Source: an uncultured Chloroflexia bacterium
Lineage (GTDB): Bacteria; Chloroflexota; Anaerolineae; Promineifilales; UBA4811
DNA length: 64,000 nucleotides
Direction: 5' to 3'
Assembly (NCBI GenBank): GCA_963707345.1
Contig: CAVPPE010000001.1
Span: 599,025-663,024 of the forward strand
In this document: positions 8,769-52,900 of the stretch, one piece after another
Position numbering within the stretch: the stretch's first letter is position 1
Layout: each line of letters starts with the position of its first letter
Made by a program: the position numbers and the translations under genes
The notes under the pieces: model-generated
Databases searched by the model: none
Told to the model about the DNA's origin: nothing
What the model saw: only the letters and a program-made list of their open reading frames with translations

Positions 8769-10093
8769 GGGGCGGTCAGCACCTGTCCGACTATCTCACC
8801 CGGCCGGAGTTCTACCAGCAGGGTGGGGGTGATGGTGTTGCGCAATTGCCCCATGCGGGCGGCGGATGGCCATCCGGCCGTACCAGCGGCCGTTACCGGG
8901 ATGTAATTATCCGTGTGCCCGCGCCAGCGCCCGCCACCGGCCGGTGATTCCCACAGCACGTCCATCGTCCGGCCAAGGAAGCGGCGCAGAAAGGCCTCCT
9001 GTTTCTCGGCGCCCAGCGAGCGCATCTGCTGGCTGCGCCCCCGGATAACCGCGGCCGGAAGCTGCCCCGCCATCTGTGCCGCGACCGTGCCCGGCCGGGG
9101 CGAGTAACCAAAGACGTGCAACCGCGCAAAGGGAATCTCCCCCACCAGCGCCATGCTTTCCTCGAATTCATCCTCGGTTTCGCCGGGAAAGCCGACGATC
9201 AGGTCGGTGGTCAGGGCTAGGTCCGGGATGGCCTCCAGCGCGGCCGCCGCCAGAGCCCGGTACGCGTCCGGCGAGGTCTGGCGGGCCATCCGCCGCAGCA
9301 CCCCGGCCGAGCCGCTCTGCAGCGGCAGGTGCAACTGGCGGCAGAGGCGCGGGTTTTGCCAGAGCTGATAAAAGCCCGGCTGCAGGTCCCACGGCTCCAG
9401 CGAGGAGAGACGCAGCCGCGGGATAGAGCTCCGGGCCAGGATGGCCTGCACGAGGTTCGATAGGTTTGGCCTTGCAGGTTTGCCCGCGCCCTGCGCGTCC
9501 TGGCCGTAGCTACCCAGGTGCACGCCGGTCAGCACCACCTCCTGATAACCGGCCGCCTCCAGCGCCTGGATCTCCGCCACCACCTCCGGCAGCGGCCGGC
9601 TGACGCCCGGCCCGCGGGCGAGGGTGGTGATGCAATAGCTGCAGGCGTTGTCGCAGCCGTCCTGCGCTTTGACAAAGGCGCGCGTCCGACCGCCGGGCAG
9701 CGGCCAATGTGGGTCAACCGGCGGGTCGGTGTCCGGTGCGATGAGGGCGAGCAGTTGCTCCTTGGCCGCGTTGTCCACCACCTGTGTTGTTGCGGGCAGG
9801 TCGGCCGTTGCGGCGGCCGGGTCCAGCGTGGCGTAGCAACCGGTGAGGATCATCTGCGCGTCAGGATTGGCGCGCTGCAGGCGCCGGGCCGCCTGACGCG
9901 ATTTGCGCTCCGCTTCGCCGGTCACGGCGCAGGTATTGAGGACAAACAGGTCGGCCGCGGCCGGGTCGCGGACCAGTTGAAAGTTCCGGCCGGCCAGTTG
10001 GCGCGCCAAGCTGTCCATTTCGCTCTGGTTGAGCCGGCACCCGATTGAGTGGAGAAAAACGTGCGCGGAGCCTAGTTTGGGGTCATCTGCCAT
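8765..10093 (-). CDS. mtaB: Radical-SAM methylthiotransferase, MiaB/RimO family (MtaB-like tRNA t6A37 methylthiotransferase)
   Basis: 442 aa with an N-terminal MTTase domain (FLHSIGCRLNQSE…NTCAVT), a radical-SAM CxxxCxxC (CDNACSYC) and a TRAM-like C-terminus. Confidence 0.85.
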   Translation of the reverse strand: MADDPKLGSAHVFLHSIGCRLNQSEMDSLARQLAGRNFQLVRDPAAADLFVLNTCAVTGEAERKSRQAARRLQRANPDAQMILTGCYATLDPAAATADLPATTQVVDNAAKEQLLALIAPDTDPPVDPHWPLPGGRTRAFVKAQDGCDNACSYCITTLARGPGVSRPLPEVVAEIQALEAAGYQEVVLTGVHLGSYGQDAQGAGKPARPNLSNLVQAILARSSIPRLRLSSLEPWDLQPGFYQLWQNPRLCRQLHLPLQSGSAGVLRRMARQTSPDAYRALAAAALEAIPDLALTTDLIVGFPGETEDEFEESMALVGEIPFARLHVFGYSPRPGTVAAQMAGQLPAAVIRGRSQQMRSLGAEKQEAFLRRFLGRTMDVLWESPAGGGRWRGHTDNYIPVTAAGTAGWPSAARMGQLRNTITPTLLVELRPGEIVGQVLTAP

Positions 10094-22373: not shown

Positions 22374-22446
22374 GCCGAGATAGCTCAGTTGGTAGAGCAT
22401 TTGACTGAAAATCAAAGGGTCCCCAGTTCAAGTCTGGGTCTCGGCA
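22374..22446 (+). tRNA. tRNA-Phe (anticodon GAA), CCA not encoded
   Basis: I folded the cloverleaf by hand. Acceptor GCCGAGA/TCTCGGC, D-arm GCTC-AGTTGGTA-GAGC, anticodon stem TTTGA/TCAAA with loop CTGAAAA, T-arm CCCAG-TTCAAGT-CTGGG, discriminator A. Confidence 0.95.
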
Positions 22447-38598: not shown

Positions 38599-40536
38599 CT
38601 ACTCTGCTCCCAGCCAGACGAATTGATACGGTTCCAAAACCAGCTCATCAAGTGGTGAGATGTAGTTGCCGGTGACCAGGTCCACAAATCGGTAGCTCAG
38701 GCCGTGGATGCGCAATTCGTTTGCTGCCACCGGTTGCTGCCGCTCGCTGAAATTTGCCAGCACCAGCACCTGGTGCCCGTGGCGCTGGCGGAGGAAGCCA
38801 AACACGTGTGGGTTGTTCACTTCAATGATGTCGGCGTTGGCCCCGGCAAGTGCCGGGTTGTTCTGCCGGACCTCGATCAGGTGGCGCAACCGGCCGTAGA
38901 TGCGCCCTTCGACGGTGTCAGACTCGGTGCGACGCGCAAAGCGTTCCCAATCGGCCGCCGGGCGATGAACCCAGCGGCTGTCCTCGGCCGCGGCCGGGTT
39001 TGCGCGAAAGTGGTAATCATTGAGCGTGCCGATCTCATCACCCAGGTACAGGAGCGGGATACCGCCGATCGAAAGGATAATGCCATGGATGAGCAAAACG
39101 CGCCGGACCGCCAATTCGATCTCATCCGGGTCGTCCTGCAACAGGGCCTGTTCCAAACCGGCCAGCGAGGCGCAGGTGCCGGAAATCCGCATGTCCCGCG
39201 TGCTGGGGTTGTACTGGAACGGGAGGCCGCGGGCAAAACTGCCCTCAAACCGGCCGGTGTAGAACGCGTTGAGGAATTGCCGGTGGTCAAAACCGTTGAT
39301 TCCCAGCGCGGCCGCATCTTCGTCGGAAAAGGTCCAGCCGATATCGTCGTGACAGCGGACGTAATTGACCCAGGCACAGCCGGGGTCGATGGCAAAGCGC
39401 ATCTGCATCGAGTGGTTCAGCAGGTGCACCTCGCGGGTGGCGAGGGCCTCCCACAACAATGCCATCAGCAACGGATTGTAAGAGAGCTGGCACTCGGTGG
39501 GGGCAATGTAACGCGCCACTTCATCGGGGTGGACAATCGCCTCGGATTTGAAGAGCAGGGCCGGCGCCGCTATACGTGTAAGGAGGTTAAATGCCTGGAT
39601 GAGCATGTGCGCCTCGGGCAGGTTTTCACAGGGGGTTCCCATCTCTTTCCAGGCGAATGCAACTGCGTCCAGCCGCAGAACCTGGACACCGACGTTGGCC
39701 AGAAAGAGCATCTCCTCTACCATCCGATCGAACACCACCGGGTTGCGGTAGTTGAGGTCCCACTGAAAGCTGTGAAAGGTGGTCCAGACCCAGCGTTGCA
39801 TATCCGGCCGGAAGGTAAAGCTGCCGCGGCGCACCTCGGGAAAGATCTCGCGCAGGTTTCTTTCATAGGCATCCGGTATTTCCCGGTCCGGGAAGAGAAA
39901 GTAGTACTCCTGATAGTCCGGATCACCGGATTGGGCGGCGCGGGCCCACTCGTGCTCATCCGAGGTGTGGTTGTAGACGAAATCCAGCACCAGACTGATG
40001 CCGTTATGCCGCAGTTCGGCCGCCAGGGTGGCCAATTCGTCCATCGTGCCGAGCGCCGGGTTGACCTGGCGGTAGCTGCTGACCGCATAGCCGCCATCGT
40101 TTTCTTCGGCCGGCGCCAGAAAGAGGGGCATCAGGTGCAGGTAGGTCAGGCCTAGCTCCCGGAAGTACGGGATTTTCTCGCGGATGCCGTTCAGGTTCCC
40201 GGCAAAAAGGTCCACGTAGCAGACCCCGCCCAATGCTTGTTGAGATTGAAACCAGCCGGGGTCGGCCTCGCGCTGGGCATCCAGTGCTTTCAGTTCGGCC
40301 GGCCGGGCGAGCCACATGCGGGCGGCCGTCTCCAGAATGGCTTCCAGGTGATAGAAAAAGTCGTACTGAGCCCCATAGAGATGCAGTAGCAACTGGAAAA
40401 GACGCGCAAAGTGGGTCTCCAGGCGGGCTTCGAACGCATCCCACTCGCCGGCCGGGGAGGCGCTCTGGTAGCGCTCCCGCAGGCGCGGCAGGAGGCGATG
40501 GAAGCTCCGCGTCGCTTGCTGGTCTGCCACAGCCAC
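38599..40536 (-). CDS. Amylosucrase-type GH13 sucrose glucosyltransferase
   Basis: 645 aa with a long N-terminal helical domain and then …[29 protein letters not shown]…[13 protein letters not shown]…LRLDAVAF…. A fructokinase gene lies immediately downstream. Confidence 0.8.
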
Positions 40537-41639
40537 TAGAAATGGGCCTCAAAGCCGGCGATGTTCAACTCGTCCCGCATGGTTTCCAGCTCCTGGCGCA
40601 GGTTTTTGTTGACCGGGATGCCCTGCTGCCGGACGATAGCCTGCATGTCGTGCTCCTTCTCACCGGCCACGTAGATACGCTCCTGGCCGGGCGCCTTGCG
40701 CGAGGCTTGTAATGCCCGCATGATGCCACCGGTGATCTGCCGCGAAAGTTCCAGCGGGACAAAATGCTCGATGTCGATGGCCAGGAAAAAGTGGCCCAGC
40801 ATGTACGGCCGGCGGGAACCGTCCGGCGCAAAACCCAACAGCTCCTTCATGAATTCCCCGCCGGCCAGTGATGCCGAAAGAATCTCGACCATCGTGGCCA
40901 GGTCATACCCCTTGTAACCGGCATACAATTCACCCGCACCGCCCAGCGGGAGCAGGGCGGCCTGGTCTTTACCCATGTCTTGCAGGATGCGGCCGGGGTC
41001 GGTGGCCGGGTTGCCCTCGGCGTCGATCACCCAGCCCTCCGGAATGGGCTTTTCCGCGCGCTCGGCTACCTCGATTTTGCCCCGCTGGCTGATGGAAGTG
41101 GCGCCATCGAAGCAAAAGGGGAAGCCGTGGTCCGATGGGGCCGCAAAAGCAATCGGGTTGGTCCCCAGCATCGGTTCCGTGCCGTGGGTGGGCGCTATCG
41201 CCGGCCGAGCGTTGGTCACGGTAAAGCCCATCATCCCCTCCTGGGCGGCCATCAATGGATAGTAGCCGGCAATCCCAAAGTGGGTTCCGTTGCGCACGGC
41301 GACGGCTCCCAGCCCGTGCTGGCGGGCTTTGTCGATGGCCATACGCATTGCGCGGTGGGCAATCACGTGACCCATGCCGTGGCGGCCGTCAATCAGCGCG
41401 GTAGTCTCGGTCTCTTTGACAAGTTCGATCTCGGTTTGGGTGGATTGGACTCCCGCCTTGATGCGGTCATAGTAGTACTTGAGCCGGCCGACGCCGTGGG
41501 ATTCGATCCCGCGCAGGTCGGAAGCGATCAGCACGTCGGCGCAGATGCGGGCGTCGGCCGGAGGCGTGCCCAATCCCTCAAAGACGGCGACCATAAAATC
41601 GCATACGACATTGATTGGAAGATAGTTGGTTGCGTCCAT
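40536..41639 (-). CDS. Ldh2-family (malate/L-lactate dehydrogenase type 2) oxidoreductase
   Basis: 367 aa with …[17 protein letters not shown]… and …[13 protein letters not shown]…, typical of Ldh_2. Confidence 0.85.
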
Positions 41640-41681: not shown

Positions 41682-43537
<1,856 letters not shown>

Positions 43538-43643: not shown

Positions 43644-44745
43644 TTAACCTTTCACCGATCCGGCCAGCAGGCCGCGCACGAAGTAACGTTGCAGCGAGAA
43701 GAACACGACCAATGGCAGGATCATGGTCACGAACGCCCCGGCCGTCAGCAGTTGCCAGTCGTTGCCGAACGTGCCCGTCAGGTCGGCCAGCCGTTGGGTG
43801 ACGACTTTGAAGGTGGGGTCGGTCCCCAGAAAAGTCAGGGCGACCAGGTAGTCGTTCCACACCCACAGGAACTGGAAAATGGCAAAGGATGCCAGGGCCG
43901 GGACCGACAGCGGCAGGATCAGCTTCGAAGAAGATGGTGAAATGGGAAGCGCCGTCGATGAAAGCTGATTCCAGCGTCTCGCGCGGCAGGGTGCTGACAT
44001 AGTTGAAGAGCAGGTAGGTTGCCAGAGCCAGGCCAAAGCCCGTGTGGGCCAGCCAGATGGCCAGGAAGGTGCCATTCAGGTTCAAGGCTTTGTAGTCGCG
44101 CAGGATGGGTACCAGGGCGATCTGCAGCGGCACGACCAGCAAGCCGACCACCAGGATGAACATCAACCGCCGGCCCGGGAAGTTCATCCAGGCAAAAGCG
44201 TAGGCGGCAAAGGCGGCGATCAGGATGGGAATGACGGTCGAAGGGATGGAGACTGCCAGGCTGTTTAGAAACGCCTGTGACATATCCTGGCCAGGTAATG
44301 TCTCTGTCGAACCATCAGGATTTGTGATCTGAACGCCACTTCCCAGCAGAACCTGCTTGTAGTTGTCCAGGGTGAAATCCGAGGTTACAGTCCAAATCTG
44401 TTTTTGAACCTCGATGCGGCCCAGGCTCTTGTTGCCGATCCAGGTGACGCGCGTATCGCCGTCGGGCGATTGAACACCTGCGCGCAGTTCATCAAAGGTC
44501 CCCGTGACGCCCTCCACCTCCATCACGCCGTCGGGATCCAGGCCGAGTTGCTTGGGATCCACGGTGCTCACCATTTCCCATTCCCGGTGGGGAAGGATGT
44601 CCCACCAGCCGGAACTCTGGATGTCAGAACGGGTGCGAAAGGAGGAGACCAGCAACCCGAGCGTGGGGATGCTCCAGATGATCACCACGAGGGCAAGCGC
44701 GCCGTTGACCAGCAGGGGTCCAGTCCACTTTCTTTGCTTTTTCAT
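43644..44745 (-). CDS. Carbohydrate ABC transporter permease (MalG-type, with a large periplasmic insertion), apparent +1 frameshift near 43926
   Basis: ORFs 43447..44745 and 43644..44075 join as …ESAFIDGASHFTIFF|(K/E)LILPLSVPALASFAIFQFLWVWNDY…. The EAA-loop region is present. Span length is 3n+1. Confidence 0.85.
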
Positions 44746-44746
44746 G

Positions 44747-45911
44747 TCAGAACGCCTCCTGTTGCCGGAACTGCCGCAAGTTGTAGATCATCACCGGGAT
44801 GACGGTGATGAGCAGGACGATGGCGATGGCGCCGCCATACCCCGAGTTGCGGGCCGTGAACGCTTGGCGGTAGAACTGGGTGGCAATGACGTGAGTGCCA
44901 TACTGCCCGCCGGTCATGACCCAAACAATGTCGAATATCTTCAGGGTAAAGATTACGACCGTCGTCCACACGGTGATGATGGTGCCCATGATGTAGGGGA
45001 TCATGATCCTGAAAAAGACCTGGATCTCGGTGGCGCCGTCCATGCGGGCGGCCTCCAGGATTTCCTCGGGGATGCCCTTCAGGGCGGCCGAGAACAGCAC
45101 CATGGCGAACCCCGCTTGCAGCCAGACGACGATGAGGATCAGGAACAGGTTATTCCAGGGTTGAATCGCAACCCATTTGTCCCAAAGGATGGGGTCTATG
45201 CCCACGGTTACCAGGAGAGCATTCAACAGGCCAATTTGAGGTTGGCCGACGGGCTGTAATTCGTACATAAAGTTCCAGATGACGCTGGCGCCCACAAACG
45301 AGATGGCCATCGGCAGAAAGATGAGCGACTTGGCGACGCGCTCGAATTTGCTCCGGTCGGCCAGCGTGGCGACCACCAGGCCAGAGACGACCGACAAGGT
45401 GCTGCCAAAGACGATCCACATCAGGTTGTTGCGCAACGCCTCGGTCAGCAGGCGCTCGGAAAAGACGGCCACATAGTTCTGAAAGCCAACAAAGGCGTCG
45501 CTGGCGAAGGTCTGGAAAAAGCCAACGCCGGGCGGAGGTCCATCCCGGCCGAAAAGGCTCAGATAGAAGGTGCGCAACGACGGCACCGCCAGGTACCAGA
45601 TCAGAATGGCCATCGCCGGGCCGACGAACACAAAGGGCTGGAGCCGCTCTGTCCATTCGTCGGGCAGCCGTTCGACGATGCTGTTGAACACCCAGTAGAG
45701 AAGGGCCACCCCGCCGACGCCCCAGACGATGGCTACAGCGGCGGTCACCCATTTGGGCGCGTTGCTGTCGCGCAAAAAGATGAACCCGTAATAGATCACC
45801 GCAAAGGCGATGAGGGGGATAACCACGGCTATCACAGACGCGCCCAAGCCAGGCCACGAACCTGGCCGCGACGCTGCCGCTGTCCTCTTGCACTGCTTTG
45901 TACTGTGCCAT
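44747..45911 (-). CDS. Carbohydrate ABC transporter permease (MalF-type); the N-terminus probably needs a +1 frame correction
   Basis: The ORF-track start (TTG 45847) has no RBS. ATG 45911 has AAGGAG 7 nt upstream but lies in the adjacent frame (MAQYKAVQEDSGSVAA…). The span 44747..45911 is 3n+1. Confidence 0.8.
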
Positions 45912-45927: not shown

Positions 45928-45964
45928 TGCAAGACTGCCAGCCCGAAGAGGGCTGGCAGTCTTG
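45928..45964 (-). other. Perfect 16-bp intercistronic stem-loop between the SBP and permease genes
   Basis: GCAAGACTGCCAGCCC-(5 nt)-GGGCTGGCAGTCTTGC. No U-tract follows on the mRNA strand, so it looks like an mRNA-stabilising or decoupling hairpin rather than a full terminator. Confidence 0.6.
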
Positions 45965-45978
45965 CTTATCATGTTACA

Positions 45979-48675
45979 CTACCTGGGCCAGGAGGCGTCG
46001 ATTTCGGCCAGGACGGTGTCGAGGTCGGCCGCGCCGCTGACATAGTCGGTCATGCCGGTCCAGAAGGAGCCAGCGCCGACTTCGCCGGGCATCAGGTCCG
46101 AGCCGTCGAAGCGGAAGCTGGTGGCTTCGAGGACCAGGGCAGCGATGCCGCGTTCCAGGTCCACGCCGTACATGTCGGGCGTGGCGGTCAGGTGGGCGGC
46201 CAGTGCGCCGCCGTTGGTCAGCCAGCCGGAGGCGGACTGCGGGGTGGTAAAGTACTCCATCAGGGCCCGCACTTCGGGGCGATCGTTGAACATGGACATC
46301 AGGTCGCCGGCGACGAGGAAGGGCTTGCCGTACTGGTCGTTGACGGGCGGGAGGTAGAAGAAGTCATAGTCGACGCCGGCCTGGGCGCCTTCGGGGAAGA
46401 AGCCGGTGATAAAGTTGCCCTGCCGGTGCATCCAGCACTTGGGCGGGTCCTCGAACATGGGGGCCGGGGAATCGCCAAAGAAGGTGGAGACGATGGCGTC
46501 GGTGCCGCCGTAGACATAGTCGGGGTTGAACCAGATCTCGCTCCAGGTCTCGATGGCGTTCTTGACCTCGGGCGAGGAGAAGGGCAGGGTACCGGCGACC
46601 CAGGCGTCATAGTTCTCCAGGGAGGTGGTGCGGAGCATCAACTCCTCGGTCCAGTCGGTGGCTGCCCAGCCGGTGGCCGCGCCCGACTCGATGCCGATGC
46701 ACCAGGCGGTGTCACCGTCGTCGGCGATCTGCTGGGTGAGGGCCAGGAGTTCGTCCCAGGTGGTGGGGACCTGGTAGCCAGCGGCGTCAAAGTCGTCCTT
46801 GGGGTACCAGACGAGGCTCTTGCCGTTGAAGCGGTGCCAGACGCCGCCGACCATCAGTTGGCCGTCCGGCGCTTCGATCATGGCCATGTCGAGCCAGCTC
46901 TGGTTGTACTGCTGCTTGAGCCAGCTTTCCGGGATCCAGGTGGTGGGGTCGACGATGTGGCCCTGGCGGGCGTAGCCGGCCGCCTTGCCTGGCTGGGGAA
47001 AGTCGGCGATGTCGGGGGCGTCGCCAGCGTCCACCGCGATGGACAGACGGGCCTCGAACTCTTTGTCGCCGATGTAGTTGACGGTGATGCCGGTGGCCTC
47101 TTCAAAGGCCGCCACGGACTCGAAGAAGCGCAGGTCATCGGGGTTGGTGAAGGGGCCATCCACGGTGACTTCGGTGCCGGCGTACTCGCCAGCGATGGCC
47201 TTCTCCAGGTAGCCGCCCGGCAGCACCGGAAAGCCTCCCGCTTCGGAGGGCGGGGCTTGCCCGGAGACACCCGCTGGCCAGGAGGCGTCGATTTCGGCCA
47301 GGACGGTGTCGAGGTCGGCCGCGCCGCTGACATAGTCGGTCATGCCGGTCCAGAAGGAGCCAGCGCCAACTTCGCCGGGCATCAGGTCCGAGCCGTCGAA
47401 GCGGAAGCTGGTGGCTTCGAGGACCAGGGCAGCGATGCCGCGTTCCAGGTCCACGCCGTACATGTCGGGCGTGGCGGTCAGGTGGGCGGCCAGTGCGCCG
47501 CCGTTGGTCAGCCAGCCGGAGGCGGACTGCGGGGTGGTAAAGTACTCCATCAGGGCCCGCACTTCGGGGCGATCGTTGAACATGGACATCAGGTCGCCGG
47601 CGACGAGGAAGGGCTTGCCGTACTGGTCGTTGACGGGCGGGAGGTAGAAGAAGTCATAGTCGACGCCGGCCTGGGCGCCTTCGGGGAAGAAGCCGGTGAT
47701 AAAGTTGCCCTGCCGGTGCATCCAGCACTTGGGCGGGTCCTCGAACATGGGGGCCGGGGAATCGCCAAAGAAGGTGGAGACGATGCCGTCGGTGCCGCCG
47801 TAGACATAGTCGGGGTTGAACCAGATCTCGCTCCAGGTCTCGATGGCGTTCTTGACCTCGGGTGAGGAGAAGGGCAGGGTACCGGCGACCCAGGCGTCAT
47901 AGTTCTCCAGGGAGGTGGTGCGGAGCATCAACTCCTCGGTCCAGTCGGTGGCTGCCCAGCCGGTGGCCGCGCCCGACTCGAAGCCGATGCACCAGGCGGT
48001 GTCACCGTCGTCGGCGATCTGCTGGGTGAGGGCCAGGAGTTCGTCCCAGGTGGTGGGGACCTGGTAGCCAGCGGCGTCAAAGTCGTCCTTGGGGTACCAG
48101 ACGAGGCTCTTGCCGTTGAAGCGGTGCCAGACGCCGCCGACCATCAGTTGGCCGTCCGGCGCTTCGATCATGGCCATGTCGAGCCAGCTCTGGTTGTACT
48201 GTTGCTTGAGCCAGCTTTCCGGGATCCAGGTGGTGGGGTCGACGATGTGGCCCTGGCGGGCGTAGCCGGCCGCCTTGCCTGGCTGGGGAAAGTCGGCGAT
48301 GTCGGGGGCGTCGCCAGCGTCCACCGCGATGGACAGACGGGCCTCGAACTCTTTGTCGCCGATGTAGTTGACGGTGATGCCGGTGGCCTCTTCAAAGGCC
48401 GCCACGGACTCGAAGAAGCGCAGGTCATCGGGGTTGGTAAAGGGGCCATCCACGGTGACTTCGGTGCCGGCGTACTCGCCAGCGATGGCCTTCTCCAGGT
48501 AGCCGCCCGGCAGCACCGGAAAGTCCACCTCGGGCATGGGTTCGGTTGGTTTCGTTTCCACGGCCGTCGGCTCGGCCGGTTTGGGGGTGGCAGTTGGCTC
48601 TTTGGTGCCGCATGCCACCAGAATGACGCTCAAGGCGAGCGCCAGGGTAAGTAGAGCAAAGCTCCAGCGTTTCAT
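45979..48675 (-). CDS. ABC carbohydrate substrate-binding lipoprotein containing two complete, near-identical SBP modules in tandem
   Basis: 898 aa with one lipoprotein signal (…SVILVAC|G). The module FPVLPGGYLEKAIAGEY…LAEIDASWP (416 aa) occurs twice, joined by AGVSGQAPPSEAGG. Confidence 0.85.
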   Translation of the reverse strand: MKRWSFALLTLALALSVILVACGTKEPTATPKPAEPTAVETKPTEPMPEVDFPVLPGGYLEKAIAGEYAGTEVTVDGPFTNPDDLRFFESVAAFEEATGITVNYIGDKEFEARLSIAVDAGDAPDIADFPQPGKAAGYARQGHIVDPTTWIPESWLKQQYNQSWLDMAMIEAPDGQLMVGGVWHRFNGKSLVWYPKDDFDAAGYQVPTTWDELLALTQQIADDGDTAWCIGFESGAATGWAATDWTEELMLRTTSLENYDAWVAGTLPFSSPEVKNAIETWSEIWFNPDYVYGGTDGIVSTFFGDSPAPMFEDPPKCWMHRQGNFITGFFPEGAQAGVDYDFFYLPPVNDQYGKPFLVAGDLMSMFNDRPEVRALMEYFTTPQSASGWLTNGGALAAHLTATPDMYGVDLERGIAALVLEATSFRFDGSDLMPGEVGAGSFWTGMTDYVSGAADLDTVLAEIDASWPAGVSGQAPPSEAGGFPVLPGGYLEKAIAGEYAGTEVTVDGPFTNPDDLRFFESVAAFEEATGITVNYIGDKEFEARLSIAVDAGDAPDIADFPQPGKAAGYARQGHIVDPTTWIPESWLKQQYNQSWLDMAMIEAPDGQLMVGGVWHRFNGKSLVWYPKDDFDAAGYQVPTTWDELLALTQQIADDGDTAWCIGIESGAATGWAATDWTEELMLRTTSLENYDAWVAGTLPFSSPEVKNAIETWSEIWFNPDYVYGGTDAIVSTFFGDSPAPMFEDPPKCWMHRQGNFITGFFPEGAQAGVDYDFFYLPPVNDQYGKPFLVAGDLMSMFNDRPEVRALMEYFTTPQSASGWLTNGGALAAHLTATPDMYGVDLERGIAALVLEATSFRFDGSDLMPGEVGAGSFWTGMTDYVSGAADLDTVLAEIDASWPR
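45986..47233. repeat. 1248-bp direct repeat, copy 1 (encodes the C-terminal SBP module)
   Basis: Aligns with 47276..48523 at an offset of exactly 1290 nt, with 6 mismatches by my reading. Confidence 0.9.
47276..48523. repeat. 1248-bp direct repeat, copy 2 (encodes the N-terminal SBP module)
   Basis: Mismatches relative to copy 1 are at 47368, 47786, 47863, 47982, 48202 and 48439. A unique 42-bp linker (47234-47275) lies between the copies. Confidence 0.9.
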
Positions 48676-48776: not shown

Positions 48777-49796
48777 TTAGCTTTTGGCGGGTGGTGCGGT
48801 TGTGTTCCGCACTACCAATTCGGTAGGCAGCACTTGGCATACGGGTTCCGATTGAGAATCCTCAAGTGCTTGCAGGAGCAGGTGCACGCCCCGTTCGCCT
48901 GATTCGTACAATAACTGCCGGATGGTCGTGAGGCCGAGGAATTCGGCCACTTCGATGTCGTCATATCCAATGATGGATAAATCCTGCGGAACCTGGAGGT
49001 TCAAGTCGCGTGCTGCCTCCACAACCCCCATTGCCTGGGTATCACTGGCGGCAAAAAACGCGGTCGGTGGCTCGGAAAGCTCCAGCAGTCCGCGAGCCAT
49101 CCAGCGCGCTTCTGCCCGGCCGTGCTGGACCAAGCGCAGATATTCGGGCCGCAACGGGATTCCGGCCGCTTCCAATGCCTGTCGATAGCCAAGCTGCCGG
49201 TCGGCACTGGAAGTAAAGTTGAATCCTTCGTTGGGAAGATCGCCGATGAAAGTGATGCGTCGGTGGCCCAACTCGATCAGGTATTCGGTGGCTTTCCGGC
49301 CGCCTTCCTTATCATCCACCAACACCCGGCTGAAGGATGCCAGGGCAGGGTGGTGGGCATCGACGAGGACAATCGGGACGGCCGAGGTTGACAATGTTTC
49401 GACGTCGTCATCGCGCGGGTTGAGTGCAAAGATGATCACGCCATCGACCCTCTCCCGGCGGGGCACATCGCGAAAACAGATGTCTCGCCGTTCCGGTGTT
49501 TCGACGTTGTAAATAATCAGGTCGTATTGGCTCTCGGTCAGCGCGTTTTCCACGCCGCGCAGCCGTTCCACAAACGACGGCCGGGTGAAAAAGGGAGTGA
49601 TGACACCAATGGTGAGGGTCTTTCCCAATGAGAGGCGGCGGGCAATTGGGCTGGGCGAAAAGTTCAACTCCTCGATGACTTCCAGGACGCGCAGACGCGT
49701 TGCTTCGCTGACAAGCGGGCTGTTGTTGAGCACTCGCGATACCGTGCCAAGGCCGACCCCGGCTTGTTGAGCCACATCTCGGATTGTCACGGCCAT
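48777..49796 (-). CDS. LacI-family transcriptional regulator
   Basis: Start at MAVTIRDVAQQAGVGLGTVSRVLNN (HTH), followed by a periplasmic-binding-protein-like sugar-binding core. 339 aa. The longer ORF-track N-terminus is rejected. Confidence 0.9.
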   Translation of the reverse strand: MAVTIRDVAQQAGVGLGTVSRVLNNSPLVSEATRLRVLEVIEELNFSPSPIARRLSLGKTLTIGVITPFFTRPSFVERLRGVENALTESQYDLIIYNVETPERRDICFRDVPRRERVDGVIIFALNPRDDDVETLSTSAVPIVLVDAHHPALASFSRVLVDDKEGGRKATEYLIELGHRRITFIGDLPNEGFNFTSSADRQLGYRQALEAAGIPLRPEYLRLVQHGRAEARWMARGLLELSEPPTAFFAASDTQAMGVVEAARDLNLQVPQDLSIIGYDDIEVAEFLGLTTIRQLLYESGERGVHLLLQALEDSQSEPVCQVLPTELVVRNTTAPPAKS

Positions 49797-49814
49797 CGAA
49801 TCCTCATCCTCACC

Positions 49815-49842
49815 TGGAACCGGTTCCATGGAACCGGTTCCA
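49815..49842. promoter_or_regulatory. Two adjacent perfect 14-bp palindromes, TGGAACCGGTTCCA x2 (putative LacI-family operators)
   Basis: 49815-49828 and 49829-49842 are each perfectly self-complementary and abut each other. They begin at the last base of the lacI -10 box. Confidence 0.7.
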
Positions 49843-49871
49843 TTATAGCATGACTCGCATTTCTTTGTCAA
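49842..49871 (-). promoter_or_regulatory. lacI promoter: consensus TTGACA, 18 nt, extended -10 TGcTATAAT
   Basis: Minus strand reads TTGACAaagaaatgcgagtcaTGcTATAATGGAACCGG…. Confidence 0.7.
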
Positions 49872-49884
49872 ACATTTGTACGCT

Positions 49885-49912
49885 TTGCCGGCCGGGCTCG
49901 TTGGGGTACAAT
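49885..49912 (+). promoter_or_regulatory. Candidate promoter of the STAND-SARP regulator gene (TTGCCG, 16 nt, TACAAT)
   Basis: TTGCCG at 49885-49890 and TACAAT at 49907-49912, upstream of an AGGAG RBS and GTG 49946. Confidence 0.4.
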
Positions 49913-49945
49913 CTGTGCGAAACCAAAGGCTGGAATAGGAGTGCG

Positions 49946-52900
49946 GTGGATACGGCGATTCTGAGCAAGGTAATGTTGCCCCGGCCGCGGCGCTATTTGC
50001 TGGAGCGGCCGGCGCTGGCAGCGCAGTTGCTGGAGGCGCAGCACTACCGGCTGACCGTGGTGCAGGCCAGCACGGGGTATGGCAAGAGCACGGCGCTGGT
50101 CTCTGCATTGCAGCGGGCTCCCCTCGAGTTGTTCTGGTACAGTATCACCGAGCAGGATCGCGACCCGTTGGTCTTCTTGCTCTATTTGGTTCACGCTTTT
50201 CGCGTCAAGCATCCCAAATTTGGCTCAGGGGTCCTGCGTCAGATCCAGGATCCGGCTGCCGGTCAGCGCTCTCACCAGGCTATTGTGGAAACACTATCCA
50301 ATGAACTGGTGCGGCAGTTGGATCCCAACCGTCCGGCCATCCTGGTGCTGGACGATTATCACCTGGTCAATGCGTCAGTCGAGGTGGGGGCGCTGGTGGA
50401 CCATTTCCTGCAAGTATTGCCACCCAATACGCACCTGGTGCTGGCAACGCGCCAGCGGCCGGCGTTGCAGGGCATGCAGCAGTGGAAAGTCAAGGGAGAA
50501 CTGCTGGAGGTTAGCCAGCACGACCTGGCCTTTAGCCCCAGCGAGGTGGAGGCGCTGTTCCATCGCCAGTATGGTGTGACGCTGAGCGACCGGCAGGTGG
50601 CGCGGCTGGCGCAGGAAACTGAGGGCTGGGTCATTGCGTTGCAGATGATCTGGCAGGGTTTGCAGAGCGGCGTGGCCAGCAGCGTGGATCAAATCCTGGA
50701 CGAGATGGCCTGGTCTCTGAGTGATCTGTTTTCCTATCTGGCGCAGGAGGTGTTGGCGCGCCAGTCGCTGCAAGTCCAGGAATTCCTGTTGTATACCTCC
50801 GTGCTGCGTCAGTTGGATGGCCCGGTGTGCGATTTCCTGTTGGAGCAACAGGGGAGTGACGAGGTGCTGCGCCGTTTCGACGAGGAGGGCTTTTTTCTGG
50901 TGCGGGTAGGTGATGCCTACCGCTACCACCATCTGTTCCACGATTTTCTGCGCCAGCAGATGGCCCGGGATTCGGAGCGCACTCAGGTTTTGCACCGCCG
51001 GGCGGCCGGCTATTTCGGGCAGCAAAATGATGTAGAGGGGGCGGTGTACCATTGGCTGGCGGCCGCAACCAGCCATTTCCCGAGCGAGGTCGAGTACGAG
51101 GCGGCCGTCGAGCTGATGGTCCAGGTGAGCGAGGTGCTGGTGCAGCGCGGCCGGTTGGATACCATGAGCGAGTGGGTTACCGCGTTGCCGCTGCCGGTGC
51201 TCGGCCGGCAGCCCGTCCTGATGTACCGCATGGGGGAACTCTGCCGCTTTGCCAGCCGCTTTGACGAGGCGCTGGCCTGGTACGAACAGGCAAGAGAGCG
51301 TTACCTTGCCCTGCGCGACGTGGCCGGGGCAAGCCGGGCGCTGCGCGGGCAGGCGGCCGTTTACCTGGACACGGTCCGGCCGCTCAAAGCGGAAAGCCTA
51401 TTGCAAGAGGCGGTGATGCTGGTGGACGGCCAACCGGACCGCGAAGAGCAGGCCCGTCTGCTGGAGTTGATGGCCGAGAATATGACCAATCGCGGCAAGT
51501 GGGACAAGGCGGAGGAGCTCCTGCGACAGGCACGCGAGTTGCGCATCGAAGGGCCCAGCAAGGCTGATCTGGATGTGCGGGTGCTGTTGCGCACCGGCCG
51601 GCTGGACGAGGCCCGCGCTTTGTTAGAGGAGAGGGCCGCAGCCGAGCGGCGCGCCCAGCAGCCGGACAGTTTTCGTGCGCCGCGTGCCCACCGTGAGACG
51701 TTGTTGTTGCTCTCACTTCTCTATTCCTGGATGGGGCAGGCGGAGCAGGCGCTGGTCACCGCGCAGGAGGGAATTGCCGTCGGCCGGCGGCTGGGTTCGC
51801 CGTTTGTCGAAGCGGTGGGCTTTATGCGGCTGGGGCACGCCTGGCAAGTGACTGAGCGAGTGGAGCCGGCCGAGGCGTCAAGGCGGGCATTGGCTTGCTA
51901 TGAGCGGGCAATGGAGATCGGCGAGCGACTGGCGGTGCGGCGCACCAAGGCAGAAGCGCTGTGGGGCTTGTGCCGACTGCACGGCTACCGCGGGGAGCTG
52001 GCCGCGGCCGAGCGCAGCGCGCGCGAGGGAATTGAAACCGGACTGGGCGCGGGCGACGAGTGGATCGTCGCGCTCACCGGGGTGACGCTTGGAATCAGCT
52101 ATGTGATTGCCGGCCGGGACCCGGACGCGGATTATTGGCTCGATCTGTCTGCGATGGCATTCCAGGAATGTGGCGACCCGTTTGGCCAGGCGGTGGCGCG
52201 TCTCTGGCAATCTTACTCCTACCTGCGCCGCGAGTTGACGGGCCTGGGCTCCGCGTTGCAGGGGCTCTTTGCGTTGCTGAAGGAGCACAATTACCAGTTT
52301 CTCCTCAGCCAGCGGACCTTTCTGGGCCTGCCAGACCCGGCCGCCCAGGTGCCGCTGCTGATCCGGGCCCGGCAGAGTGGCATCTGGCCGGCTTTTGCGG
52401 GCCGGATGCTGGAGCAGACGGGTCTTCCGGCCGAGCTTTCGTTTCACCCCGGCTACACATTGCGGGTCCACGCGCTGGGCCGCTTTGCCGTCGGCCGGGG
52501 CGACGACCCGATCTCTGACGGTGAGTGGCGGCGCGAAAAGGCGCGTCAGTTGTTCCAGTTGCTTCTGCTCAGCCGGCACGAATCGTTCGTGCCACGGGAG
52601 CGGATTGCGGCCCAGCTCTGGCCGGAGGCGGATGAGGAGGCGGCCGAACGGCAGTTCAAGGTATCGCTCAACGCGCTGCAGCGAGCTTTGGAACCCGGCC
52701 GGCCGCCGCGCACGGCGACGCTGTTTGTCCAACGGCGGGGGAGCGCCTATGGCCTCAATCCGGACGCGCCGCTCTGGTTTGACGTGGACGTTTTTGAGCG
52801 GCTGGTTGCCCAGGCGGAGCAGGAGGCGGATGACGACACGGCTCTGGAAGCGTACCGGCAGGCATTGGCGCTGTACCACGGCGATCTGCTGCCCGATCAC

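Follow-up and report, generated by a model that had tools for sequence, protein, structure and literature searches.

How does a gene come to carry two almost identical copies of an entire receptor, and what keeps the copies alike? The question is raised by a gene for a substrate-binding protein (SBP) in a 64,000-nucleotide (nt) stretch of DNA, hereafter the window, from an uncultured Chloroflexia bacterium placed by GTDB in the class Anaerolineae (GenBank assembly GCA_963707345.1, contig CAVPPE010000001.1, forward-strand positions 599,025 to 663,024). Its product is a predicted lipid-anchored receptor with two complete SBP_bac_1 sugar-binding modules. Sequence comparisons indicate that the gene is an old intragenic duplication whose halves evolve in concert through gene conversion or unequal exchange, and that this duplication is common to orders of Anaerolineae. 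The explanation favored here, in which an AglE-like receptor derives from an old duplication evolving in concert, is retained as a double by selection, and would capture its substrate in tandem, has as a whole a probability of roughly 0.8.

When the window is compared with itself at an offset of 1290 nt, positions 45986-47233 match 47276-48523 without gaps and with six mismatches in 1248 nt (at 46078, 46496, 46573, 46692, 46912, and 47149), and identity directly beyond both ends of the repeat is at the random level. This is the sole long direct repeat in the window, and a chance origin of such a length at 99.5% identity is impossible. An earlier sequence-only reading of the locus had given the same offset and the same six sites, which the self-comparison reproduces exactly. 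Codon analysis also returns its division of the differences into four synonymous third-position changes (V436/V866, S271/S701, Q158/Q588, and F79/F509, module 1 versus module 2) and two replacements among the 416 residues (G297/A727 and F232/I662). The synonymous excess had been offered as support for a real expressed fusion, an argument that has to be dropped, as the sample is too small to count. The 42 nt between the copies (47234-47275) encode AGVSGQAPPSEAGG and are unique, as had been claimed: they match the flank of neither copy, being unlike both the upstream tether and the tail, and have no second copy within the window. Translation and a Pfam match for each module bear out the ORF of 898 residues with a single LVAC lipobox and two SBP modules of 416 residues. 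No strand had been given; the gene runs on the minus strand, so that the N-terminal module is 47275-48522. The protein ends one residue past module 2, without a membrane domain, and a Shine-Dalgarno-like AGGAGG lies 8 nt 5′ of the ATG.

The same architecture is frequent among relatives. Among the best 120 cluster representatives of a search of 5.8 billion proteins, about 95 are full-length two-module homologs (~870-950 residues), and the comparison of single with double versions that had been proposed for this gene also finds singles and forms with three and with at least four modules. Across the two-module homologs, module identity to the window ranges from 88% down to 49%. They come from independent assemblies, including contigs of 1.15, 3.05, and 3.76 Mb, and their named sources are Anaerolineae, Anaerolineales, Caldilineales, Ardenticatenaceae, Promineifilaceae, and Thermoflexales.

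The two modules of one protein closely resemble each other, with a median identity of 98.8% and at least 95% identity in 65 of the 95 doubles, whereas the median between modules of different proteins is 63%. The nearest neighbor of a module is its own sister for 164 of the 196 modules, and in the neighbor-joining tree, where the window falls among Anaerolineae sequences, modules pair by protein and not by position. Silent sites show the same pattern: identity at fourfold-degenerate sites is 95-99.5% between the modules of one gene, versus 25-67% between genes.

Pairs of related genomes show that the copies have been reset separately. Within each of L003 and L081, the cores of the modules are 100% identical, as against 90.5% between the two (1070 aligned columns). 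Compared by position, the unique parts (pre-module tether, linker, and tails) are 85-93% identical, and parts at different positions are unrelated. Similarly, the modules of L082 (on the 3.05-Mb contig) and of L084 (on the 1.15-Mb contig) are 99.8% and 99.3% identical within their genes and 84.8% between them, and the linkers of the two genes are alignable. Orthologous flanks around separately reset cores imply that homogenization took place independently after speciation, and orthologous linkers beside such cores rule out both a single young duplication and repeated fresh ones.

The edges of the homogenized regions are informative as to the process. The repeat of L081 starts at ~75% identity over ~180 nt and then runs for 1075 nt without a mismatch, and L001 has a perfect core of 1112 nt with diverged edges. 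Runs of this kind were never reproduced by uniform placement of the mismatches in 2000 permutations (P < 0.0005), and such sharp steps in identity are as expected of gene-conversion tracts. The existence of three- and four-module alleles shows that unequal exchange occurs as well. For example, P0004 (L085 2067-6065) has three modules that are 86-96% identical in 1332 residues with an intact lipoprotein signal, at a locus with a ROK regulator and GH3 in place of LacI and GH13, and P0001, truncated at its N terminus, contains the end of a fourth module besides three others (at least four modules).

In the window, the last homogenization is, judging from the repeat, recent, with six substitutions since. 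At the four synonymous sites (46078/47368, 46573/47863, 46912/48202, and 47149/48439), A or T is found in module 1 and G or C in module 2 throughout, and F232 of module 1 deviates from the family consensus, Ile. Taken together, most of the changes that followed homogenization seem to lie on the side of module 1.

Doubles with diverged modules date the duplication. The modules are ~71% identical in P0095, P0098, and P0099, ~81% in P0107, P0108, P0116, and P0118, and ~55% in P0051, P0063, P0064, and P0065. Here the modules cluster by position across proteins, the first with the first and the second with the second, which means that the duplication is older than those lineages. In L004, L006, and L019, the two modules are 82-84% identical in DNA, 55-62% at fourfold sites, and 85-90% in protein, and protein identity above DNA identity indicates purifying selection on both modules. 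From these sequences, lineages whose modules are at about 85% DNA identity or lower appear to have escaped homogenization. A search for conversion patches in the diverged doubles found a longer-than-expected identical run in L006 (59 nt, P = 0.004) and none in L004 or L019. The distribution of within-protein identity, skewed to 98-100% with a tail of escapees, fits a feedback by which similarity allows conversion and conversion preserves similarity. The four most diverged proteins (P0051 and P0063-65) are chimeric, module 1 falling in the clade of the window and module 2 in a different one, near P0077 and L020. Recombination with a foreign gene seems to have replaced one of the modules, and such hetero-tandems may have two specificities.

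Base composition was compared as well. The GC content at third codon positions (GC3) is 0.90 in the receptor gene of the window versus 0.73 in the adjacent permeases, a gap that hints at GC-biased conversion. Across loci, the receptor gene exceeds the permeases in GC3 by 0.095 in homogenized doubles, by 0.045 in singles, and by 0.025 in diverged doubles, a trend only (Mann-Whitney P = 0.13).

The common origin of the doubles is also seen in the linker. It nearly always begins directly after a conserved ...SWP and has a starting motif of xGVxGQxS or xGxTGxxS type; the linker of P0002 (83% identity), EGVAGQPPPSEGPDVG, opens with the same motif as that of the window. The tethers of relatives resemble the window tether in composition, and single- and double-module proteins alike end 1-3 residues past the final SWP. 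The motif and its position after SWP, together with a stop shortly after the final SWP, indicate that the linker is homologous among doubles and is not a by-product of separate duplications.

Four alternatives have to be weighed against concerted evolution of an old duplication. The one that survives best concerns the window genome: the importer could be dead by the single-base frameshift in permease 2 (see the table), and the receptor gene a relic. The shift is visible in a tblastn comparison with the L082 ortholog, which runs in one frame over residues 1-271 (79% identity) and continues in the next over residues 273-365 (89%); the 432-residue ORF that the mechanical list places here is a read-through in the wrong frame. 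However, permease 2 has no stop past the shift and keeps its similarity to the ortholog there, the 898 codons of the receptor are open, and the promoter, the ribosome-binding site, and the downstream enzyme genes are intact. In an operon that is otherwise intact, the frameshift is consistent with a sequencing indel or with a mutation that is very recent. Decay of this operon is unlikely, and it would have no bearing on the family-wide pattern.

Less likely again is a birth-and-death process, in which one module is lost by deletion and the survivor is later duplicated anew, so that doubles look young everywhere. Such a process would agree with the single-module genes of Chloroflexota, Paenibacillus, and Spirochaetes that are interspersed among the doubles in the tree, with copy numbers from 1 to at least 4, and with the variable reach of the repeated region into the linker in many proteins. 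Yet the linker would be lost with the deletion and a later duplication would make a junction of its own, and one would then not expect the linker motif and position to be conserved, nor the linkers to be clearly orthologous in genome pairs with separately homogenized cores. The ~75% segment of L081, lying beside its long identical core, also fits a conversion tract rather than a fresh duplication.

That assembly doubled a single-copy gene, by stutter or by stacking of strain variants, the six differences being polymorphisms, is highly improbable. Near-identical repeats of 1.25 kb are certainly hard to assemble, since the graph of a short-read assembly turns a tandem repeat into a loop, and signs of this are found among relatives: L005 has a gap of 100 N within module 2 (9656-9755), the contigs of L009 and L018 end in the linker, and many homologous protein fragments begin within module 1. 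However, collapse or fragmentation is what is expected of such repeats, not expansion. The junction of module, linker, and module assembles only if it is present in the reads, the gene stays in frame over 2.7 kb, and a linker homologous to those of relatives could not have been invented by an assembler. In addition, contigs of 3.05, 3.76, and 1.15 Mb, which we infer from size and naming to be long-read assemblies, have the same double with 98.5-99.4% repeat identity and scattered differences as in the window, which excludes a short-read artifact. The preference of the sequence-only reading for a real fusion over an assembly stutter is therefore upheld, by the linker conserved in relatives and the ~95 doubles. 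Since short-read assemblies break at the receptor gene, it is rather the single-module versions in metagenome-assembled genomes (MAGs) that may be collapsed doubles, a point of consequence for assembly. This may be the case for L007, L008, L010, and L011, in short-read MAGs, while the single modules of L037 and L042, on contigs that appear to be long-read, are probably real.

Just as improbable is a very recent tandem duplication in the window lineage alone, without gene conversion, since the small number of differences and the clean repeat boundaries are outweighed by a unique 42-nt linker where a fresh junction would join the end of the segment to its start, by the sharing of the linker motif and position with relatives such as P0002, by the recurrence of the architecture in about 95 homologs, to 49% identity, and by related genome pairs with orthologous linkers and yet independently homogenized cores. 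This candidate was rejected on the shared linker, the class-wide doubles, and the post-speciation resetting of cores. Of the two origins that had been proposed for the repeat, a very recent duplication falls and an older one kept homogeneous by conversion stands, favored by linker orthology, silent sites, and reset cores.

Several points weigh against the favored explanation or parts of it. Copy number and expression in the window rest on assembled sequence, and a loop in the assembly graph means that perfect identity of the copies is possibly in part imposed by the assembler, and that the true copy number could be higher. The linker is of low complexity, which makes its homology at the deepest nodes weaker evidence. 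The single-module genes interspersed among the doubles belong to a family history that includes losses, transfers, or assembly collapses, which are not separable. GC-biased conversion across loci is a trend only. The frameshift in permease 2 may mean that the importer is inactive here, or it may be an indel error of the assembly. Lastly, the structural model described below has no defined interface between the modules, and the advantage of having two identical ones is argued by analogy.

SBP_bac_1 (PF01547) is found in module 1 with E = 2.8e-16 (60.8 bits) and in module 2 with E = 4.4e-17 (63.5 bits), the cutoff being 26 bits. These separate scans were needed, as a Pfam scan of the full-length protein returns zero families at E ≤ 0.001. 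Many homologous doubles also lack a Pfam domain in precomputed tables, an issue for annotation, and full-length doubles without a Pfam match are easily overlooked in domain-based surveys. The signal peptide fits the lipobox [LVI][ASTVI][GAS]C, with Cys22 as the predicted lipidation site, and the Cys22 column is invariant in an alignment of 58 homologs. Structure prediction, which had been suggested as a check, agrees with two folded units. The AlphaFold2 model, built with a 58-sequence alignment, has a mean predicted local distance difference test score (pLDDT) of 89.8, with modules at about 90 or higher, values below 50 at tether residues 22-43 and linker residues 475-481, and a predicted template-modeling score (pTM) of 0.52. 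Confident modules, a disordered tether and linker, and this pTM indicate two independent globular units whose mutual orientation is undefined.

Each module has the two-lobed fold of sugar-binding proteins. A Foldseek search of the PDB aligns it with the SBPs AcbH, ppGBP, TtGBP, and RafE at template-modeling (TM) scores of 0.7-0.8 and ~16% identity, and gives no solved structure that aligns to both modules together. The best solved matches per module are AcbH, a galactose-binding SBP of Actinoplanes (PDB 3oo6-3ooa), and the Thermus and Pseudomonas glucose-binding proteins, at a TM score of 0.8; these differ from the window protein in having a single module and in their low identity to it. A phmmer search of the sequences of solved structures finds only distant sugar SBPs (best E = 3e-9).

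The substrate is suggested by closer relatives. Single-module proteins of alphaproteobacteria are 45-47% identical to the module, and their loci contain, besides the SBP, two permeases, GH13, and a MalK-like ATPase. We take this layout to be that of the alpha-glucoside system AglEFGAK of Sinorhizobium meliloti, of which AglE is the binding protein. At L079, for example, a GH13 enzyme (E = 6e-122) and a MalK-like ATPase lie downstream, and the name given to homologs by the Joint Genome Institute (JGI) is "alpha-glucoside transport system substrate-binding protein." The agl-like loci and this naming make alpha-glucosides a reasonable choice. The enzyme context is mixed: GH13 is found here and in relatives, and GH1 or GH3 beta-glycosidases stand beside some members. 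The protein is thus probably the receptor of an AglE-like (CUT1) sugar ATP-binding cassette (ABC) importer, with alpha-glucosides as its likely substrates. Judged via the alphaproteobacterial relatives, its modules belong to the sequence family of AglE, and LacI and GH13 are nearby in both cases. In contrast, AglE-type proteins are periplasmic and single-module, of about 430-470 residues, and the window protein is a two-module lipoprotein.

How such a double might work is proposed by analogy. Two equivalent modules would sit on one lipid anchor like beads on a string, held by the flexible tether and linker, and each would bind sugar independently and dock in turn on the permease pair. There would then be two binding sites per lipid anchor, and the local concentration of receptor would be raised. 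The working model is GlnPQ of Lactococcus lactis, an importer with a tandem of substrate-binding domains (SBDs), SBD1-SBD2, that are joined by a 14-residue linker and are largely independent (PMC8025302). Both systems have two complete binding domains per polypeptide, a type I ABC importer, and a short flexible linker of, in both, 14 residues, and the GlnPQ domains take turns in delivering to the translocator, as is assumed here for the window receptor. The differences are also clear. In GlnPQ, small amino-acid-binding domains are fused to the transmembrane domain, whereas here sugar modules of 416 residues form a separate lipoprotein and the permeases are separate genes. The GlnPQ domains differ in specificity and affinity, whereas the window modules differ at 2 of 416 residues and are kept alike by recombination.

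At the level of DNA, homologous recombination between the 1.25-kb halves repeatedly overwrites one copy with the other. Unequal exchange also yields alleles with 1, 3, and at least 4 modules, and cycles from two to three and back to two modules that keep the linker belong to the same explanation. Kilobase-long tandem direct repeats are readily deleted by recombination. That the double nevertheless persists across orders points to selection for it, which probably maintains the two-module form. That the modules are identical is most simply seen as mainly a by-product of recombination. A more speculative idea, to which we give little credence, is that the array is a reversible, recombination-driven "receptor-stacking" device, in which the number of modules (1, 2, 3, or at least 4) tunes capture capacity or reach through the envelope or sheath. 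If this were true, near-perfect DNA identity would itself be favored, since the array stays recombinogenic, and the gene would be a contingency locus on a nutrient receptor instead of on an adhesin or antigen.

Concerted evolution is known in bacteria for tufA/tufB, for rRNA operons, and for the surface repeats of Gram-positives, SasG/Aap and Rib/alpha-C. The window family shares with these systems copies that are closer within a genome than orthologs are between genomes, identity at silent sites, a variable copy number, and homogenization driven by recombination. It differs in its unit. The repeats of SasG/Aap and Rib/alpha-C are short structural units (tens to ~130 residues) that make stalks of variable length, and the tuf and rRNA copies are separate genes, whereas here the unit is a whole receptor of 416 residues, usually in exactly two copies per ORF and class-wide.

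Tandem SBDs, in a few amino-acid importers, and concerted evolution in bacteria are thus each known, and a class-wide, self-homogenizing double of a full-size sugar SBP on a free lipoprotein was not found described. Full-text literature searches on tandem, duplicated, or fused SBPs, on Chloroflexi, and on concerted evolution of bacterial domain repeats gave no description of the architecture, with GlnPQ as the sole near analog. The sequence-only reading had known of no such protein; it is in fact common in Anaerolineae sequence data, although a paper describing it was indeed not found. The case unites tandem binding domains with concerted evolution, in a module of 416 residues that is retained class-wide and continually re-homogenized. 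In the largely uncultured Chloroflexota, it lets intragenic recombination be followed in natural replicates, including tract lengths, edges, and the escape threshold, and it is a test case for the benefit to an ABC importer of two identical receptors per anchor.

The coordinates of the gene, its parts, and the surrounding features are given in the table.

Table 1. Features of the two-module receptor gene and of its neighborhood in the window (positions are those of the 64,000-nt stretch; aa, amino acids).
Feature	Position	Strand	Remarks
Two-module substrate-binding lipoprotein gene	45979..48675	-	898 aa; stop codon 45979-45981; ORF list and translation
Signal peptide, residues 1-22	48610..48675	-	Lipobox L-V-A-C; sequence MKRWSFALLTLALALSVILVAC
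N-terminal tether, residues 23-51	48523..48609	-	29 aa; Pro/Thr/Glu/Ala-rich; unique sequence
Module 1, residues 52-467	47275..48522	-	Complete SBP_bac_1; corresponds to DNA repeat copy 47276-48523
Linker, residues 468-481	47233..47274	-	14 aa; unique; AGVSGQAPPSEAGG; begins with family motif xGVxGQ
Module 2, residues 482-897	45985..47232	-	99.5% identical to module 1; corresponds to DNA copy 45986-47233
ABC permease 1, MalF/UgpA-like	44747..45847	-	366 aa; PF00528 E=1.7e-16; NCBIfam GlcT/UgpA/MalF-like
ABC permease 2, MalG/UgpE-like	43644..44745	-	1-nt frameshift near 43926-43930; tblastn
Small hydrophobic Trp-rich ORF	43028..43537	-	169 aa; downstream of permeases
GH1 beta-glucosidase	41682-43031	-	Pfam and NCBIfam
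Ldh_2 dehydrogenase	40536-41639	-	Pfam and NCBIfam
GH13 alpha-amylase-family enzyme	38599-40536	-	Pfam and NCBIfam
LacI-family repressor ORF	48777..50108	-	Over-extended as called; Pfam LacI at residues 108-153 and Peripla_BP_3
Sigma-70-type consensus promoter	49842..49871	-	TTGACA-18-TATAAT; 12/12 matches; TG extension
Hairpin	45929..45965	-	Perfect 16-bp stem, 5-nt loop, no T-run; between receptor stop codon and permease 1
tRNA gene	22374-22446	+	75.7 bits; sole Rfam match of the window at gathering threshold

The minus-strand operon has the order LacI repressor, receptor, two BPD_transp_1 permeases, small hydrophobic ORF, GH1, Ldh_2, and GH13, and the order LacI, receptor, two permeases, and GH13 is kept in relatives. 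Long permeases (~365-400 residues) are not peculiar to doubles, as single-module loci carry them too. The LacI ORF is overcalled by ~100 codons: its helix-turn-helix begins at residue ~105, orthologs have 336-345 residues, and translation probably starts near 49.8 kb. The consensus promoter sits inside the overcalled part, just upstream of this likely start. The hairpin that follows the receptor gene has a predicted RNA fold of -35.4 kcal/mol (z = -6.75 versus shuffles) and is not called by intrinsic-terminator prediction. Its position fits an mRNA-stabilizing or attenuating element that would lift expression of the receptor above that of the permeases.

The small hydrophobic ORF has no Pfam or NCBIfam match. 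It looks internally duplicated and is 50-54% identical to the ORFs found at the same position in L082 (144 residues) and L084 (174 residues), which suggests that it may be an uncharacterized accessory membrane component of these importers.

The SBP module also occurs in proteins of another build. At 50-61% identity, it makes up the C-terminal half of seven proteins of 750-950 residues (P0124, P0125, P0127, P0129, P0136, P0140, and P0143), the N-terminal halves of which are Ser/Thr protein kinases, a TIR and EAD7 effector pair, or an MscS channel carrying a cNMP-binding domain. The sugar-binding module was presumably recruited as a sensor domain in these fusions.

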